Shown one piece after another: positions 1-9,209 of a stretch of 64,000 bases of DNA. The translations under genes were made by a program, and so were the position numbers. The DNA is from Alphaproteobacteria bacterium (GTDB lineage: Bacteria > Pseudomonadota > Alphaproteobacteria > CAAGCB01 > CAG-977): assembly GCA_017616015.1 (NCBI GenBank), contig JAFZYY010000019.1:486-64485 (forward strand), written 5' to 3'. Position 1 is the stretch's first letter. Each line of letters starts with the position of its first letter. The notes below the pieces were generated by a model. It was not told the DNA's origin, did no database searches, and saw only the letters and a list, made by a program, of their open reading frames with translations.

Positions 1-1250
1 ACAAGCCGTGACAGGTACGGGCATTTTTCCGGCGAAGCTTCCGGCGCGTAGCTCATAATATACTTCCAGATTGCGGCAGGGTCTTCGGAATGGCAGACGC
101 TGACAAGGTTCAGCAAAATCCCGAACGACAAACCCGTTTCCGGCTTCGGCGGATTGCCGTTGTGAATGTGCCAGACGGGGTTGTTGATTTTGTCCTTGTC
201 CTCTTGCCGACCGTAAGCGCCGATGAAGTTCAGGTATTCGTCGGTCGCGCGGGGAATCACGTCAAAGTACAGCCGCTTTGCCGTTTTCGGCTTCTGGTAC
301 ATGAACAAAGACAGCGATTCCGCCGGAGCGTATTTCAGCCATTCTTCCATCGACAAGCCGTTTCCTTTGGACTTGGAAATCTTTTCGCCTTTCTCGTCCA
401 AAAACAGCTCGTACGTCAGGTTTTTCGGAGGTTCTCCGCCTAAAATACGGCAAATCTTGCTTGACAGTTTGACCGAATCCGTCAGGTCTTTACCCGACAT
501 TTCATAGTCGACGCCCAAAGCGTACCACCGCATCGCCCAGTCGGCTTTCCATTGTAGCTTGCAATGCCCACCCGTGACGGGAACGGTCGTTTCCGTGCCG
601 TCTTCGTCGATAAAGGAAACGGTGCCGTTTTCCTTGTCGATTTTTGTCATTGCGACTTGCAGGACGTTGCCCGTTTTCGGCGAAATCGGCAGGAAAGGAG
701 AGTAAGTCGCGCGGCGTTCCTCGCCCAACGTCGGCAACATGACGTTCAAAATTTTTTCGTAATTTTCCAACACTTTTAACAGGGCTTTGTCGTAAATGCC
801 CGTCGTGTAAAGCTCGGTCGCCGACTTGAATTCATAGGTGAAGCCGAACTTGTCCAGAAACGCTTTCAGACAATCGTTGTTGTGATGCCCGAAGCTGTCG
901 TGACAGCCGAACGGATCGGGGATTTTGGTCAAAGGCTTACCTAAGAATTGCCCGACCATTTCCTTGTTGGGAATGTTGTCGGGGACTTTGCGCAGACCGT
1001 CCATATCGTCGGACACGCAGAACAGGCGCACGGGCACGTCGGGATAAAGCGTTTTAAAGGCGTTCATCACCATCGTCGTGCGGGCGACTTCGCCGAACGT
1101 GCCGATATGCGGCAGACCGGACGGACCGTATCCCGTTTCAAACAGGACATAACCCTTTTCGGGAACTTTGCCGCCCAGCTTTTCATTATACAAAGCGCGG
1201 GCTTCTTCAAACGGCCAGGCATTGGCGGTCATAGCGATTGCGGAATCCAT
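1..1250 (-). CDS. lysK: lysyl-tRNA synthetase, class I (LysK type); 3' end cut by window start
   Basis: Manual minus-strand translation from ATG at 1250 gives [27 protein letters not shown]... The class I HIGH region ([10 protein letters not shown]) and a KMSKS-type KISKSKGNG motif are present. The listed plus-strand ORFs 90-443 and 948-1349 are Arg-rich antisense artefacts of this gene. Confidence 0.8.
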
Positions 1251-1349
1251 ATTTTCACCTCTGATAAAAAGTTAAGGTTTGTTGCCGACAGTTTTATAAT
1301 GAAAAGCGGTTTTTGTAAAGAAGGCAAAATCAACGTATTTTGGAAATAA

Positions 1350-1559
1350 CACTAAAAAAAATTATGCAAAATTATCGTATTTTTTTACTGTTTTTATATC
1401 TTTTTAGAGCAAAGCTGATATCGAAAAAAGTAAAATTAAAAAAATAGTGGGTGACAGAAATTCTAAGAAGATAGTATTATGATGATAAAAAATAGATGAT
1501 GTTAAGAACGTTAGACTCTAAAACACATTGAATAAGCCGGATGTGGAGAAGATTTCGTT
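1350..1559 (+). promoter_or_regulatory. AT-rich non-coding leader/promoter region of the methyltransferase island
   Basis: About 210 nt of very AT-rich non-coding sequence (A/T runs, TATAAT-like hexamers) directly upstream of the first island gene. Confidence 0.3.
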
Positions 1560-2612
1560 ATGAGTGGGAACTCAATTTTAAATTGTGCGAAATATTCATC
1601 AAAAAATACGGATGAATGGTATACAACATACGAAACTATAGCAGAAGAAATAAAGTATTATACTAAGCAGTTTTTTGGAAAGGCGGTTTTGTGTAATTGT
1701 GATGATCCGTTTGAATCTAATTTTTGCTATTACTTTTTAAAAAACTTTAATAAGTTACGGTTAAAAAAACTTGTTTGCACTTCCTATGCTGGTTCAAAAA
1801 TTGATCAAATTAAAAATGATAGACAGGTGCCGTTAAAAATGTTTCTTAATACGGGAGAACCTGTAACGGTTGGCAGAGGGTATGTGCTTACAATAACTGA
1901 GATTCCAGGAAGGATTGGAAAAGAGGTTGATGATTTAACTATAAAGAAAATTCTTTCAAAAAAAGGAGTCGTAAAAAAATTAATCGGAAATGGAGATTTT
2001 AGAAGTGAAGAATGTGTTAAGTACTTGAAAGAATGTGATATTTGTTGCACTAATCCGCCGTTTAGTTTGTTTGTGGATTTATTTTCGCTGTTGGTTAAAT
2101 ACAATAAGCTATATTTGTTGATAGGTAATCAAAATGCCATTACATATAAAGAAATATTTCCCTATATAAAAGAAAATAAAGCATGGGTCGGATATAAATT
2201 CGGAGATATGGCGTTTAGAGTGCCTGCCGATACAGAACCTCGGAATACCAGATTTTGGGTTGATGAAGCCGGACAAAAATGGAGAAGCTTGGGAAACGCG
2301 ATGTGGCTTACCAATATAGATATTAAAAGAAAATATCAGAAGTTAGAATTAACTAAATACTATAATCCAGAAGTATATCCAAAATTTGATAATTTTGAAG
2401 GAATTAATGTAAAAAAAGTCGCAGATATTCCGGTCGATTACGACGGAATAATGGGTGTTCCTATTACATATATTAAATATCATAATAGTTCTCAATTCGA
2501 AATTATAGGTGAAGCTAATCACGGATCGGATAATGAATTTGATTTATTTAAACCTAAAGTAAATGGTAGAGAATTATTTAAAAGAATCCTGATTCGTCGA
2601 AAGGGTAAATAA
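1560..2612 (+). CDS. putative N6-adenine (amino) DNA methyltransferase
   Basis: 350-aa ORF with motif IV NPPF (CTNPPFSLF) and an N-terminal DEWYT (FxTP-like motif X) element. AT-rich codon usage. It is separated by 3 nt from the downstream C5-MTase. Confidence 0.55.
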   Translation: MSGNSILNCAKYSSKNTDEWYTTYETIAEEIKYYTKQFFGKAVLCNCDDPFESNFCYYFLKNFNKLRLKKLVCTSYAGSKIDQIKNDRQVPLKMFLNTGEPVTVGRGYVLTITEIPGRIGKEVDDLTIKKILSKKGVVKKLIGNGDFRSEECVKYLKECDICCTNPPFSLFVDLFSLLVKYNKLYLLIGNQNAITYKEIFPYIKENKAWVGYKFGDMAFRVPADTEPRNTRFWVDEAGQKWRSLGNAMWLTNIDIKRKYQKLELTKYYNPEVYPKFDNFEGINVKKVADIPVDYDGIMGVPITYIKYHNSSQFEIIGEANHGSDNEFDLFKPKVNGRELFKRILIRRKGK

Positions 2613-2615
2613 AGA

Positions 2616-3683
2616 ATGGCAAAAAAATTTAGAATCCTTGATTTGTTTTGCGGAGCGGGCGGCCTTTCATGGGGGTTGCATAAAAACAGAAATTTTAAGA
2701 CCGTTGTTGCGTTGGATCTTGATGAAAATGCGGCGAATACGTTTAAGAAGAATATGCCGGATACCGAAGTGTTTGTGGGAGACATAACGGATAATGTTAT
2801 TAAAGAAAGAATAATAGCTTGTTCTAAAAAAAAGAAAATCAATATGATTGTTGGTGGTCCGCCTTGTCAGGGTTATTCAATGAAAGGAAAAAAGCTCGGT
2901 CTGGCGGATCCTAGAAACTTTTTATTTCAAGAGTATTTGAATATAGTTAAGGAAATACAACCGGAAGTTTTTGTTATTGAAAATGTGAAAGGACTCCTGA
3001 TTTCATTAAAAGGTTGGTTCAAAGGTGAAATAATCCAATCTATAGAAAGATTGGGATATCATGTTGAATATGGAATCCTGAATGCGGCAGATTTTGGTGT
3101 TCCACAGTCAAGAGAAAGAGCTATATTTATTTGTTCTAAGGAAAAATCCATTCCATTGCCTAAAGCTACTGTTGTTAAAAGGACTACCGTTAGAGACGCA
3201 ATCAGCGATTTGGCATATTTGAATTCGGGAGAGGGGGGGTTTGAACAAGCATATCGTATCGATGCGCAAAGCGAATATCAGAAACTGCTAAGAAAAGGAA
3301 GCAATAAACTGTACAATCATAAAGCTTCAAATCATAAAAATATAGCTATAGAAAAACTAAAGTTAATATCTCCGGAACAAGGTAAAGAATGTCTTCCGGA
3401 AGAAATAATAGGAAAGCAAAAATTTAAGACTACGTGGGGACGCTTAAAATGGGATGAAGTTTCTCCTACAATTGATACCAGATTTGATGCTTCATCGAAT
3501 GGAACAAATAATCATCCTTATTTGCATCGGGCGATAACACCAAGGGAAGCGGCGAGAATACAATCCTTTGATGATGTGTTCGTTTTTTATGGATCGAAAG
3601 TATGCGTTAGAAAACAAGTAGGGAATGCAGTTCCGCCATTATTGGCAAAAGCTATCGCGGATCAGATTGAGAAGAATTTCTAG
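2616..3683 (+). CDS. DNA cytosine-5 methyltransferase
   Basis: All canonical C5-MTase motifs are present: FCGAGG (I), GGPPCQGYS (IV, catalytic Cys), ENVKGL (VI), QSRERAIFI (VIII), GNAVPP (X). Confidence 0.9.
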   Translation: MAKKFRILDLFCGAGGLSWGLHKNRNFKTVVALDLDENAANTFKKNMPDTEVFVGDITDNVIKERIIACSKKKKINMIVGGPPCQGYSMKGKKLGLADPRNFLFQEYLNIVKEIQPEVFVIENVKGLLISLKGWFKGEIIQSIERLGYHVEYGILNAADFGVPQSRERAIFICSKEKSIPLPKATVVKRTTVRDAISDLAYLNSGEGGFEQAYRIDAQSEYQKLLRKGSNKLYNHKASNHKNIAIEKLKLISPEQGKECLPEEIIGKQKFKTTWGRLKWDEVSPTIDTRFDASSNGTNNHPYLHRAITPREAARIQSFDDVFVFYGSKVCVRKQVGNAVPPLLAKAIADQIEKNF

Positions 3684-4595
3684 ATGAAAAGGAAAGCAGT
3701 AATGAATGTGGAAATGGCATATCTGCTTGGAATGATTGTGGGAAATGGTGAAATACAAAGAGGAACGATAGAAACGACAATTTCCATTGATATACCACAT
3801 AAGAAATTAGAAACTGAATTTCAGCATGATGTGGGAATTTACGTCAAGGCAAGTATTACGGATATTAGAAATGTGTTAGAGCCGTTGCTTGGCACATCGC
3901 TTAATTTTACGCAAAATGCAAATGTCTCATTGCTGTCGTTCCGAAAACCGAATGAAGATTATTTGATGCGTGAAATTTTAAGATATATAGGCGGGGCCAC
4001 AAGTTCCGATAATGCAAGAATTTCACAGGAGATGTTTGGTTTTACATTTGACGAGAGAAAGCATTTTGTGAAAGGTTTTGCTGATGTTACGGGATACATT
4101 CGAAGAAGTAATTACGCTTTTTCTGAGCCTAATTACAGGGTGTATTTTGAAATTCCGCATAATTGGGGATTGGTTGTAGATTTTTGTAATTTACTAAAAA
4201 GTATTGACATACCGGTTCAAGCTATAGACTGGGCCCATCCCAATATGAGAGACGGTAATTTAACTAAATATAATCAAGGCAAGTCCGATTTTTGGAAAAA
4301 AGAACATCAAGTTAAAGTATGGGCTTTGGAATATCAACCGGTTGGGTTTGTTGTATTACATAAGCAACAGGCGTTGGATTATTTTGCGAAAGAACAGAAG
4401 AAAAATTATGTGGTGCAAGGGAAAGATCCGGCAGAGCGACTTCATAGATATTATTGGGAACTCACTCAAAAAATAAGAGAAAAACCTATACATCCTGCAG
4501 AAAATGATGAATTTATTCCTGTTGAAATAAGAGGAAAGCATTATAATAGTTGGACAGAGATCGCGAAAGATTTAGGATATGGTAAAGACGAATAA
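3684..4595 (+). CDS. hypothetical protein with two degenerate LAGLIDADG-like motifs (candidate nuclease/specificity subunit of the island)
   Basis: 303 aa. Starts 1 nt after the C5-MTase stop. AYLLGMIVGNGE at residues 12-23 and KGFADVTGYI at residues about 120-130 are spaced about 108 aa apart, as in single-chain LAGLIDADG proteins, but the catalytic acids are replaced (N, T). Confidence 0.5.
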   Translation: MKRKAVMNVEMAYLLGMIVGNGEIQRGTIETTISIDIPHKKLETEFQHDVGIYVKASITDIRNVLEPLLGTSLNFTQNANVSLLSFRKPNEDYLMREILRYIGGATSSDNARISQEMFGFTFDERKHFVKGFADVTGYIRRSNYAFSEPNYRVYFEIPHNWGLVVDFCNLLKSIDIPVQAIDWAHPNMRDGNLTKYNQGKSDFWKKEHQVKVWALEYQPVGFVVLHKQQALDYFAKEQKKNYVVQGKDPAERLHRYYWELTQKIREKPIHPAENDEFIPVEIRGKHYNSWTEIAKDLGYGKDE

Positions 4596-5076
4596 TGTTA
4601 ATTTGGAAGAAGAGTTGTACGAGCCAATGCGATTGTGGCTTGAACGATATGTAAAAGATAAATGCAAAAATTATGAAGTTGTAGCTGTCGATGCGCATGC
4701 CGAACGATTAGATCGAGTGTTGGTAAAATATGAAATAGTAAATGAAATGGCAAATGGCGTTGATATTCAAATAGATGTTTTAGCAATCGCAAAGAAAAAT
4801 AATGATATGAAGCTTTTTTTTATTGAGGCAAAGAAAACTCAATTAACATTAAGAGATTTGGGACAATTATGGTCGTATTGTAAGTTGGTGGATCCTGATG
4901 AAGCGTTTTTAATATCTTCTTTGGGATTAGGGAGTTTAAATAAGTTGTTAAACGCATTCAGAAGAGAGGATCTTTTAGATTTCGGTAATGGTAAGAAAAT
5001 CAAAAAAATGAAAGTAGCTAAATGGGATATTAGAACCAATTCCCCAGATATAATGAGTATGGTTCCTAAAATATAA
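4579..5076 (+). CDS. hypothetical PD-(D/E)xK nuclease-fold protein
   Basis: 165 aa. Overlaps the upstream ORF by 17 nt, suggesting translational coupling. Motif ...GVDIQIDVLAIAKKNNDMKLFFIEAKK... gives D-x(n)-E-A-K in the expected beta-strand context. Confidence 0.55.
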   Translation: MVKTNNVNLEEELYEPMRLWLERYVKDKCKNYEVVAVDAHAERLDRVLVKYEIVNEMANGVDIQIDVLAIAKKNNDMKLFFIEAKKTQLTLRDLGQLWSYCKLVDPDEAFLISSLGLGSLNKLLNAFRREDLLDFGNGKKIKKMKVAKWDIRTNSPDIMSMVPKI

Positions 5077-5093
5077 AATGAGGAGAGAAAGGT

Positions 5094-5438
5094 ATGAGTG
5101 TTGCACAGCAAATAGATCAATTTTTTCAGAGCACAGGCCAGTCTGTATTCATTGAAGCTGAAGCAAAGGAAAGTAGAATATTAAGCTTTATAAGAGATTA
5201 TAATTCTAAATATTCTTTAAACTTAAGAATTTCAGATGAGGGTATTATTTCGTTGGGCGAAGATGCGAATAAGTGGGGGCTTGAATTGCGATGCTATTTT
5301 ATAGATCGTACAGGTATTCCGGCGGGTGTTCAGGTGACATCGAATAGAGCCTATCGTGCGGAATATCCGTATAGATTTAATGATGTCGATGTAATCCAGG
5401 AATTATTTGATTTAGGATATAGAATTGGTCTTAACTGA
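5094..5438 (+). CDS. hypothetical protein (last gene of the AT-rich island)
   Basis: 114-aa ORF with an SD-like aggagagaaagg upstream. Same strand and composition as the island. Confidence 0.45.
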   Translation: MSVAQQIDQFFQSTGQSVFIEAEAKESRILSFIRDYNSKYSLNLRISDEGIISLGEDANKWGLELRCYFIDRTGIPAGVQVTSNRAYRAEYPYRFNDVDVIQELFDLGYRIGLN

Positions 5439-5516
5439 TGAAATACTAAAGAATTATCTTTAGAAAAAGAGACTCTTTCGTGATTTATCATCTGTTGTAT
5501 TCGGGAAGGAACCATC

Positions 5517-8363: not shown

Positions 8364-9209
8364 ATGGTTATGCTAAAACGTTTTTTGCTTCTTTTCAGTT
8401 TGTCTGTTTTGCCTTCCTGTTCGCAGGATTTGATTTATTCCGAAACAGCGCCGTCTTGGGTGAACGCCGTTCGTTCCGGCGACAGTTCCCTGCGTGTTGT
8501 ATCAGGGGATAAAATTTTATTCAGAGCCAATCAAAAAGGAAGCGGAAGCGATAAACGGGAAAATGTTTGTGTTGCTGCGATAGAAAAAAACGTTTCTTAT
8601 ATCAAGAAAGCATATCCGTCTTTAGTTCAAATTCCAATGACGGTTGAGTTGGTATTTTTTGATCCTAAAGTAAATGACTGTTCAACGACAATCAGCGTAT
8701 CTCGGCAACTGATGGAAAAGGCTGAAGTTTTGGCCAAATTAAAAAGTCAATATGACAAGGAAAAGAAAAGGTTAAAAGCAGAAACAGAAAAAATTCAGAA
8801 TGATTTGAAAAAAACAAATGCGGAAAAAGTGGTATTAGAAAGTAAAATCAAAAAGCTGAATGAACTTATCGCCCAAAATCAAAGCTATGCGAAACAGATA
8901 AAGACACTAGAAGATTTTGTAGAAAGTGTGAAAAATGAAAGAAAGCAAATTAAACAAAAAATAGAAAATTACATTTATACAGGAATGAACCCTGAAGAAG
9001 TCGGAAAAATTATGCGCGGACACAATTATCAGAGTGGTCTTGCAATAGATTCAGTATGTAGTACGGATCTTAATTATTATACTCGATATATGGATTATGT
9101 CCTGTGTGGAGTGAAATTACCATATAACGATGATGCAGAAGTGGGGTTTGTTACAGAAATTTGTAATTTAAGAGCAAATTCCTGTTACATAAAAGAATTG
9201 GAATATTAA
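8364..9209 (+). CDS. AT-rich lipoprotein with central coiled coil
   Basis: Signal peptide plus lipobox (LSVLPSC). A long K/E-rich heptad region (KLKSQYDKEKKRLKAETEKIQNDLKK...). The composition is clearly AT-richer than its neighbours. Confidence 0.6.
   Translation: MVMLKRFLLLFSLSVLPSCSQDLIYSETAPSWVNAVRSGDSSLRVVSGDKILFRANQKGSGSDKRENVCVAAIEKNVSYIKKAYPSLVQIPMTVELVFFDPKVNDCSTTISVSRQLMEKAEVLAKLKSQYDKEKKRLKAETEKIQNDLKKTNAEKVVLESKIKKLNELIAQNQSYAKQIKTLEDFVESVKNERKQIKQKIENYIYTGMNPEEVGKIMRGHNYQSGLAIDSVCSTDLNYYTRYMDYVLCGVKLPYNDDAEVGFVTEICNLRANSCYIKELEY

Follow-up and report, generated by a model that had tools for sequence, protein, structure and literature searches.

Restriction endonucleases are known with the PD-(D/E)xK, HNH, GIY-YIG, PLD, and half-pipe folds. 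The LAGLIDADG fold is mentioned neither in a 2014 review of Type II enzymes (PMC4081073) nor in a 2025 review of restriction-modification (R-M) systems (PMC12707154), and the LAGLIDADG descendants given in a review of the relatives of homing endonucleases are limited to maturases, HO, and WhiA. In homing endonucleases the penultimate motif position binds the catalytic metals, as do D21 and E117 of I-DmoI; WhiA, a transcription factor of the same fold, has Arg and Gly at the acid positions (PMC3384342). Here we analyze a 64,000-nucleotide (nt) stretch of DNA, called the window below, from an Alphaproteobacteria metagenome-assembled genome (MAG; contig JAFZYY010000019.1), in which the gene for a degenerate LAGLIDADG-like protein of 297 amino acids (aa) is followed by that for a 165-aa putative nuclease and preceded by two DNA methyltransferase genes. 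The evidence points to an R-M system with a new endonuclease architecture, a widespread and undescribed kind of restriction enzyme. No description of an R-M component of LAGLIDADG fold was found in the literature searched, which held few subscription papers and did not cover REBASE, and an earlier description is possible.

In function, the closest precedent would appear to be BtsI and BsrDI, which are heterodimeric Type IIS enzymes. Compared by pattern and size rather than by sequence, they resemble the pair described here in their subunits (37.6 and 18.6 kDa in BtsI, 34.6 and 19.1 kDa here), in the PD-x(12-17)-ExK residues of the small subunit (D65/E78/K80 in BtsI A and D67/E82/K84 in BsrDI A, against D66/E83/K85, spaced D66-x16-E83, here), in having two methyltransferases, and in the logic of an asymmetric site (PMC1950550). 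They differ in gene order and in their large subunits, which carry a second PD-(D/E)xK-type site (D-x-E-x12-QR), whereas the fold here is that of LAGLIDADG proteins. We considered whether the family might itself be the BtsI/BsrDI large subunit; this was ruled out, as the defining motif P/A/F-D-x13-18-E-x12-QR was found by regular expression in 0 of 36 members and the fold differs. In design, the closest precedent seems to be inactive I-SceI joined to the FokI cleavage domain, PvuII, or MutH, where a dead LAGLIDADG scaffold binds DNA and the nuclease is a separate PD-(D/E)xK module (PMC2685105, PMC3258161, PMC3627573). Natural fusions of 539-557 aa share the layout of these chimeras; the chimeras, however, are man-made, whereas the present family is natural, widespread, and accompanied by presumably protective methyltransferases.

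Fold and motifs of the LAGLIDADG-like protein

The open reading frame (ORF) at 3684-4595 on the forward strand encodes 303 aa, as the initial annotation stated, but the real gene is probably 3702-4595, since all of its ~1,855 database relatives begin at the second Met (MNVEMAYLLG, 297 aa) and the ATG at 3702 is preceded, at a distance of 8 nt, by AGGA. Among those relatives is an NCBI entry of 100% identity (Alphaproteobacteria MAG J5787_05135), with the same start. Residues are numbered below in the 297-aa protein unless the 303-aa ORF is named. The features of this gene and its partner are as follows.

3702..4595, forward strand: double-LAGLIDADG-fold protein with degenerate motifs, 297 aa, the proposed DNA-recognition subunit (AlphaFold predicted local distance difference test, pLDDT, 91.8; Foldseek against PDB and BFVD)
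3717..3752, forward strand: LAGLIDADG-like motif 1, AYLLGMIVGNGE, at the end of helix 1 (residues 3-15); acid position N here, R in most distant relatives
4065..4100, forward strand: LAGLIDADG-like motif 2, FVKGFADVTGYI, at the end of helix 116-130; acid position T here and A, G, T, or another small residue family-wide, with D128 (motif position 6) nearly invariant
4230..4322, forward strand: extended β3′-β4′ loop of domain 2, WAHPNMRDG...KKEHQVKVW, the family's most conserved stretch
4485..4580, forward strand: conserved C-terminal tail, HPxE..IP..IRGKHY.SW..IA.DLGY, which in fusion proteins continues into the linker to the nuclease domain
4579..5076, forward strand: 165-aa partner, the proposed catalytic subunit, with D66 (4774-4776), E83-A-K85 (4825-4833), and Q96-x3-Y100 (4864-4878)

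Both motifs that the initial annotation described are present. Motif 1 lies where it was placed, at residues 12-23 of the 303-aa ORF, whereas motif 2 falls at residues 128-139 rather than at about 118-130. The spacing is ~116 residues instead of the 108 first given, and the claim that it suits a single-chain protein survives, the range in other single-chain LAGLIDADG enzymes also covering ~116. In I-DmoI the spacing is 96, from residue numbers in PMC3384342. When the protein was shuffled 20,000 times, 1.9% of the shuffles had one or more instances of a relaxed 9-residue motif pattern, and none had two at a spacing of 90-135.

Because the Pfam LAGLIDADG profiles miss the family, support for the assignment is structural and not profile-based. 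An exhaustive search of 1.84 billion representatives returned 271 relatives down to ~25% identity, and a diverse alignment of 36 sequences drawn from them (A2; 23-100% identity) was the input to the final AlphaFold model, a prediction for an unsolved structure, with pLDDT 91.8 and a predicted template modeling (pTM) score of 0.91. In this model, domain 1 consists of helix (H) 3-15, strands (E) 16-20 and 24-32, H44-63, E68-71, E75-83, and H87-96, and domain 2 of H116-130, a short β1′ bridge at ~131-132, E145-151, H155-167, E172-176, E202-207, and H208-211. An earlier model built on a shallow alignment (≥77% identity) had the right topology, LAGLIDADG matches, and β1′ as a full strand (131-135), but at pLDDT 58 it was untrustworthy and has been superseded. 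The two motifs form the C-terminal ends of helices 3-15 and 116-130, with a strand after each, as in real LAGLIDADG enzymes. The top 50 Foldseek matches in the PDB were all LAGLIDADG proteins, including the bI3 maturase (2.4e-6), I-AniI, I-Tsp061I (target TM 0.70, root-mean-square deviation 3.7 Å), PI-PfuI, I-DmoI, and PI-SceI, with WhiA only at ranks 47-50; in the viral structure library BFVD, intein-bearing proteins and free LAGLIDADG endonucleases were matched, with a best E-value of 1.4e-9. At the level of the predicted fold, the protein appears to belong to the LAGLIDADG superfamily, as first suggested from its motifs.

Sequence profiles gave the initial annotation no such backing. The window protein had no match to PF00961, PF03161, or PF14528 at E-values up to 1, and among the 36 relatives a Pfam scan at E-values up to 10 found a single noise-level match, to LAGLIDADG_3 (E 0.12). 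Searches of Pfam, NCBIfam, PADLOC, PHROGs, and PDB sequences likewise returned no meaningful match for the 297-aa protein. A weak alignment of the family profile to motif 2 of PI-PfuI (E 0.32) was in register.

Across the 36 relatives, down to 23% identity, three glycines (G10, G16, G125) never vary and D128 hardly does; the consensus reads Y-L-L-G-[LM]-I-x-[GA]-[RNK]-G for motif 1 and F-[IVL]-[RK]-G-[FY]-A-D-[VA]-[ATG]-[GA] for motif 2. In a LAGLIDADG enzyme the last residue but one of each motif would be D or E. The window protein has N and T at this position, as the initial annotation noted, and neither acid occurs in any of the 36: in motif 1 the position is R, N, or K and rarely S or G (Arg for the majority of distant members, Asn in the clade of the window), and in motif 2 it is T, A, G, C, N, I, or S. 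The loss is a property of the family and not a peculiarity of the window copy, and because this position is never acidic, the canonical active site is, to judge from the alignment, absent family-wide.

The single-chain homing endonucleases I-DmoI, I-AniI, I-Tsp061I, I-SceI, PI-PfuI, and PI-SceI share with the family the predicted fold and its topology, a pair of LAGLIDADG helices with a β hairpin after each, a spacing compatible with ~116, and the motif glycines. In contrast to them, the family lacks the penultimate acid, goes undetected by Pfam, and has a conserved β3′-β4′ insertion of ~25 residues and a C-terminal extension of ~90 residues. Nor is it found in an intron or intein: no such context was seen in the 89 loci collected, where the gene always shares an operon with methyltransferase genes and with the 165-aa gene for a separate nuclease. 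WhiA (DUF199) and the bI3 maturase, domesticated LAGLIDADG scaffolds that are catalytically dead, are alike in having the same fold, replaced catalytic acids, and a C-terminal extension on the scaffold; WhiA has Arg and Gly (PMC3384342) where the family has Arg, Asn, or Lys in motif 1 and Ala, Thr, or Gly in motif 2. However, the family has none of the WhiA Pfam domains (PF02650, PF10298, PF14527) and no helix-turn-helix (HTH), its tail has one predicted helix, and its genomic context is another. We know of no WhiA or LAGLIDADG maturase that is coupled or fused to a nuclease.

Conservation is unevenly distributed over the protein. Among distant members, 26 positions of domain 2 are conserved at ≥80%, against 7 in domain 1. 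The most conserved part is the ~25-residue insertion in the β3′-β4′ hairpin (loop residues 177-207; W-G-H-P-N-x-R-D...K-E-H-Q-x-K), which has no counterpart in domain 1 and holds W177, G178, H179, P180, N181, E201, H202, and Q203; R146, N154, W155, C162, and K221 are conserved elsewhere in domain 2. This cluster could be a docking site for the nuclease, a structural zinc site (one Cys and two His), or a new active site, and one possibility is that its Cys, His, His, Glu, and Asn make up a novel catalytic or metal center grafted on the LAGLIDADG fold.

Other cysteines are found outside the window's clade. Distant members have a Cys/His/Cys/Cys set in the C-terminal tail (A2 residues 244, 280, 288, and 293), and the fusion proteins P0298 and P0310 have a CPxC...CxxC insertion in domain 1 (residues ~45-75); both are probably zinc sites, and the window's clade has neither. 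The tail itself recurs in P0351, a 640-aa repeat protein whose repeats of ~50 residues correspond to the final 30 residues of the LAGLIDADG-like protein and to no other part of it, and the tail may be a small reusable DNA-binding element. We do not claim it as a NUMOD1 or HTH domain, the sole link being P0351 with its noisy Pfam matches to NUMOD1, the I-TevI DNA-binding domain, and Flg_new_2.

The putative small nuclease, its fusions and the methyltransferases

The 165-aa ORF (ATG 4579) overlaps the LAGLIDADG-like ORF (stop 4593-4595) by 17 nt, exactly as first annotated, and has an alternative start at TTG 4603 that agrees with 158-aa homologues. In an alignment that includes relatives of 25-35% identity, the invariant residues of the protein are Y14, P16, W20, L48, D66, E83, K85, L91, Q96, Y100, P106, A109, and W149. 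The pattern D66...E83-x-K85...Q96-x3-Y100 is the RecB-family (RecB/NucS-type) version of the PD-(D/E)xK signature, so that, at the level of motifs, the protein carries the recognized catalytic residues of a nuclease that an R protein should have. No family match above threshold was obtained in Pfam, NCBIfam, PADLOC, or PDB sequences; weak matches were to Cas4d (0.003), HSDR_N (0.008), and YhcG_C (0.06), within an overall range of E 0.003-0.7. The family profile aligned weakly with EndoMS/NucS (E 0.71), placing ExK on the catalytic E179/K181 and QxxxY on Q192/Y196. The partner thus has the D...ExK...QxxxY pattern of the RecB-family enzymes (NucS/EndoMS, Cas4, the HsdR N-terminal domain), which bear these motifs on an α-β-β-β-α-β core, by matches that are all below significance; unlike them, it is a stand-alone protein of 158-165 aa without the iron-sulfur cysteines of Cas4 or the N-terminal domain of NucS.

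The 89 loci come mostly from a one-genome-per-species scan with the close-family alignment, in which 181 species genomes matched and 80 loci were kept. In every one of the 89, the LAGLIDADG-like gene is directly followed by the small nuclease gene in the same orientation, overlapping or abutting it. Moreover, 19 of 150 listed representative clusters (50% identity) are single-chain fusions of 539-557 aa, 17 of them independent of the search model, in which a complete LAGLIDADG-like region (~residues 3-335, with a Cys-rich insertion in domain 1) is followed by a Lys/Glu-rich linker and the nuclease domain (~390-550). The partnership proposed in the initial annotation therefore extends well beyond the window, and the fusions are strong evidence that the separate 297-aa and 165-aa proteins act as one enzyme.

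Variants of this arrangement were also seen. At locus L090:1187-3354, the gene after that of the 557-aa fusion P0310 encodes the small nuclease once more, as a free protein, with N-x-E in place of E-x-K and E in place of the Q of QxxxY, so that E83, K85, and Q96 are lost. Because this copy lost its catalytic residues, the nuclease module may pair an active with an inactive copy in a dimer. In P0293, P0304, P0322, and P0324 (991-1299 aa), the LAGLIDADG-like domain is C-terminal, after 700-1000 residues without a Pfam match; one such large protein adjoins an N6_N4 methyltransferase gene and lies near a gene for a 1853-aa helicase-nuclease (L091:1211-5255). These large proteins may be another architecture of the same idea.

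The R-M context suggested by the initial annotation holds throughout. DNA methyltransferase genes lie within 5.5 kb in 88 of the 89 loci, and the exception ends at a contig end 53 nt upstream of the gene. At least two such genes are present in 76 of the 89, and many of the remainder have two-domain fusions of 700-720 aa. In the window, genes for an N6-adenine (m6A) and a C5-cytosine (C5) methyltransferase are directly upstream of the proposed endonuclease genes. This EcoRI-type m6A + C5 pairing is one of three, the others being C5 with gamma-class N6 and gamma-class N6 (Eco57I/TaqI_C type) with beta-class N6/N4, and the endonuclease pair is almost unchanged across them. Methyltransferases of the N6_N4 and N6 types also neighbor the fusion proteins and the more remote members of the family. 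An asymmetric recognition site is usually dealt with by a system having two different methyltransferases, an arrangement that would also suit a monomeric pseudo-dimeric reader.

A proposed two-subunit restriction endonuclease and its alternatives

On balance, we think it fairly likely that the 297-aa and 165-aa proteins are two subunits of a restriction endonuclease in a Type II (IIS-like, asymmetric-site) R-M system, the methyltransferases of which protect the host. The large subunit, a LAGLIDADG scaffold that is pseudo-dimeric within one chain and has neither motif's metal-binding acid left, would serve only as the sequence-reading module, binding an asymmetric DNA site through its β-sheet saddle. 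The small subunit, a putative RecB/NucS-type PD-(D/E)xK nuclease with no recognizable DNA-reading part, would hydrolyze the DNA; it would be held on the scaffold, or covalently fused to the scaffold C-terminus in some lineages, and probably would act as a dimer that cuts both strands. Each methyltransferase would modify one strand or one half of the asymmetric site, blocking binding or cleavage. To this extent we infer, with the initial annotation, a catalytically silent specificity subunit that recruits the nuclease.

Several observations weigh against this proposal. Neither protein matches any PADLOC Type II restriction-enzyme model, Pfam or NCBIfam family, or PDB sequence, and the nuclease fold of the 165-aa protein is suggested by motifs and weak matches. 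The bias of conservation toward domain 2 fits an active site or a fixed interface better than the variable surface that would be expected of a reader. Between the clades with different methyltransferase pairings, the LAGLIDADG-like protein has 138 shared and only 3 clade-specific positions (of 297); the simplest reading of this near-constancy is that these are isoschizomers with swapped methyltransferases, and it gives no positive sign that the LAGLIDADG-like protein sets specificity. A test of whether clade-specific residues are concentrated in the β-saddle found just these 3 positions, the clades being too similar for it to bear on specificity. Finally, LAGLIDADG scaffolds normally read 14-22 bp, a length that short-site methyltransferases may not readily cover.

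In a stricter form of the proposal, a dead LAGLIDADG saddle would read a long asymmetric site, each half with its own methyltransferase, and deliver a generic RecB-type nuclease to it. This would constitute a new structural class of restriction endonuclease, and we put it forward tentatively, as possible but doubtful.

Conservation in domain 2 raises the alternative of a heterodimer with two active sites, after the manner of BtsI/BsrDI, whose large subunit nicks one strand and whose small subunit is inactive alone (PMC1950550). Here the LAGLIDADG-like subunit would both recognize the site and nick one strand through a non-canonical active site in domain 2 (D128, R146, H179, N181, E201, H202, and K221), and the small PD-(D/E)xK subunit would cut the other strand. 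The 26 conserved positions of domain 2, against 7 in domain 1, do include His, Glu, Asn, and Lys as well as the nearly invariant D128, and at L090 the free small nuclease without E83, K85, and Q96 would imply that a second site for double-strand cleavage lies elsewhere. However, no member retains the metal-binding acid in either motif, most having Arg instead, the 'D-x13-18-E-x12-QR' motif of BtsI/BsrDI occurs in 0 of 36 members, and the Cys and two His of the cluster fit a structural zinc site equally well. We regard this arrangement as rather unlikely.

The gene order could instead be that of a regulator and its target. A controller gene just upstream of the R gene and overlapping it is the classical PvuII-type arrangement, and some real restriction enzymes are as small as the 165-aa protein (PvuII, 157 aa), which could be a self-sufficient endonuclease while the LAGLIDADG-like protein, as a large WhiA-like 'controller', times expression of the operon. 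WhiA, which is among the structural matches, shares the fold, has also lost the acids, and is a transcription factor (PMC3384342). Yet the 19 representative clusters in which both proteins are fused are hard to square with a regulator, the search for an HTH domain was negative and just one helix is predicted in the C-terminal tail, the LAGLIDADG-like gene abuts the methyltransferase gene with no intergenic operator region, a minimal plasmid system retains both genes, and in some loci a separate small HTH gene lies upstream. A regulatory role is, in our judgment, decidedly unlikely.

That there is no restriction enzyme here at all, the protein being a decayed remnant of a mobile homing endonuclease, half of a toxin-inhibitor pair, or a modification-dependent nuclease merely traveling with methyltransferases, is highly improbable: selfishness is typical of LAGLIDADG genes, copies in an island, on a plasmid, and in phages show the locus to be mobile, and homology to known restriction enzymes is lacking, but the protein is strongly conserved (77-100% in the 120 best database clusters), at least 181 species genomes carry it intact, it is never inside an intron or intein here, the same partner and methyltransferases always adjoin it, and the pair is kept while methyltransferase families are exchanged, as expected if methylation protects against the pair.

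The locus, its spread and what it would mean

The two genes belong to a unit of five co-oriented, closely packed genes inside a low-GC island. The remaining features of the island are as follows.

1250..5450 (approximate), no strand: low-GC island holding the five-gene unit (composition profile, 31-38% GC against 50-60% in the flanks)
1451..1480, forward strand: best sigma-70-like promoter match, 5′ of the first methyltransferase gene (10 of 12 consensus positions; consensus match only)
1560..2612, forward strand: methyltransferase 1, EcoRI-type N6-adenine DNA methyltransferase, 350 aa, NPPF motif (Pfam PF13651, E 4.6e-106; PADLOC MTase_II, 2e-103)
2616..3683, forward strand: methyltransferase 2, C5-cytosine DNA methyltransferase, 355 aa (Pfam PF00145, E 6e-74; TIGR00675, 9e-66)
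5094..5438, forward strand: 114-aa acidic protein, isoelectric point 4.8, accessory gene (homologues or related 151-159-aa forms in ~53 of 89 loci)

The island looks horizontally acquired, by its composition; the nearest relatives of the LAGLIDADG-like protein (87-89% aa identity) are in MAGs of Lachnospiraceae, Erysipelotrichaceae, and Anaerovoracaceae. A search for flanking repeats or an integrase bounding 1250-5450 found none. The site at 1451-1480 is a possible operon promoter, in a region where the number of promoter-like sites is close to shuffle expectation. The two methyltransferases are joined as a single 711-aa protein in some relatives. A 53-nt imperfect direct repeat (72% identity) links 3366-3418, in the variable region of the C5 methyltransferase, with 4488-4540, in the C-terminal tail of the LAGLIDADG-like protein (SPEQGKECLPEEIIGKQK and HPAENDEFIPVEIRGKHY at the protein level), and may be due to chance in AT-rich coding DNA.

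Beyond the window, the family comprises ~1,855 database clusters at 90% identity and is present in at least 181 species genomes. Its hosts are found in Bacillota, Bacteroidota, Spirochaetota, Campylobacterota, Desulfobacterota, Synergistota, and Chloroflexota, in addition to the Alphaproteobacteria MAG of the window, and the protein is 77-100% identical among the 120 best database clusters. This patchy spread over at least seven phyla and the low-GC island fit mobile R-M genes. Carriers include Lactiplantibacillus plantarum P9 (plasmid p9), Butyrivibrio sp. X503, Anaerotignum neopropionicum DSM 3847, and Treponema socranskii ATCC 35536. A non-mobilizable plasmid of Lactiplantibacillus plantarum (L092; NZ_CP060181.1, 6495 bp) carries nothing beyond replication genes, a toxin gene, a single fused methyltransferase, and the pair of genes described here, and so defines a minimal three-gene system of fused methyltransferase, LAGLIDADG-like protein, and nuclease. 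The system is also carried by a temperate phage of Lachnospiraceae (L093; PV036410.1), next to an excisionase, and copies occur in Anaeroplasmataceae phages. In some loci the neighbors are McrBC, GmrSD, AbiA-HEPN, PLD, and FRG-domain proteins, that is, defense islands.

The accessory genes are more variable. Members of the 114-aa family (114-160 aa) share the motifs IEAE, K..LELR.YF, P, R.N, and G..IG, with I20, K60, R66, Y68, P76, R94, and G108 invariant. Where present they are sometimes in two copies, and they lie before the LAGLIDADG-like gene or after the nuclease gene (e.g., L055:6171-6985 and L075:6039-6992). The family had no match in Pfam, PHROG, or PDB and is absent from the minimal plasmid system; its product could be a third subunit or a regulator. 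The 114-aa gene of locus L005 was considered as a counterpart of the window's gene and proved not to be the same. In ~18 loci a gene for a 358-aa NOV_C/DUF3883 protein lies between the methyltransferases and the LAGLIDADG-like gene (e.g., L001:6922-7998), and other loci have an unrelated 114-aa gene in that position and a PLD-family gene downstream; these inserts look like variable accessory effectors. Elsewhere in the window, a second AT-rich patch in the high-GC host DNA (8364-9209; GC ~32-40%) is unrelated to the LAGLIDADG-like gene; the 281-aa protein encoded there has a signal of lipoprotein type (LPSC) and, in its middle, a Lys/Glu-rich part resembling a coiled coil.

Wherever the family is named, it is annotated as 'hypothetical protein' and is therefore missed by defense-system finders. 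If the proposal is correct, nature would already have made the 'inactive meganuclease plus nuclease domain' design that engineers built, and the enzymes, possibly rare cutters with asymmetric recognition, could serve as tools. Should the long-site form of the proposal hold, the family would connect the LAGLIDADG lineage with R-M systems for the first time. More generally, the two-subunit enzyme would represent a second independent domestication of the homing-endonuclease scaffold and a new R-M architecture, common in gut and rumen bacteria.

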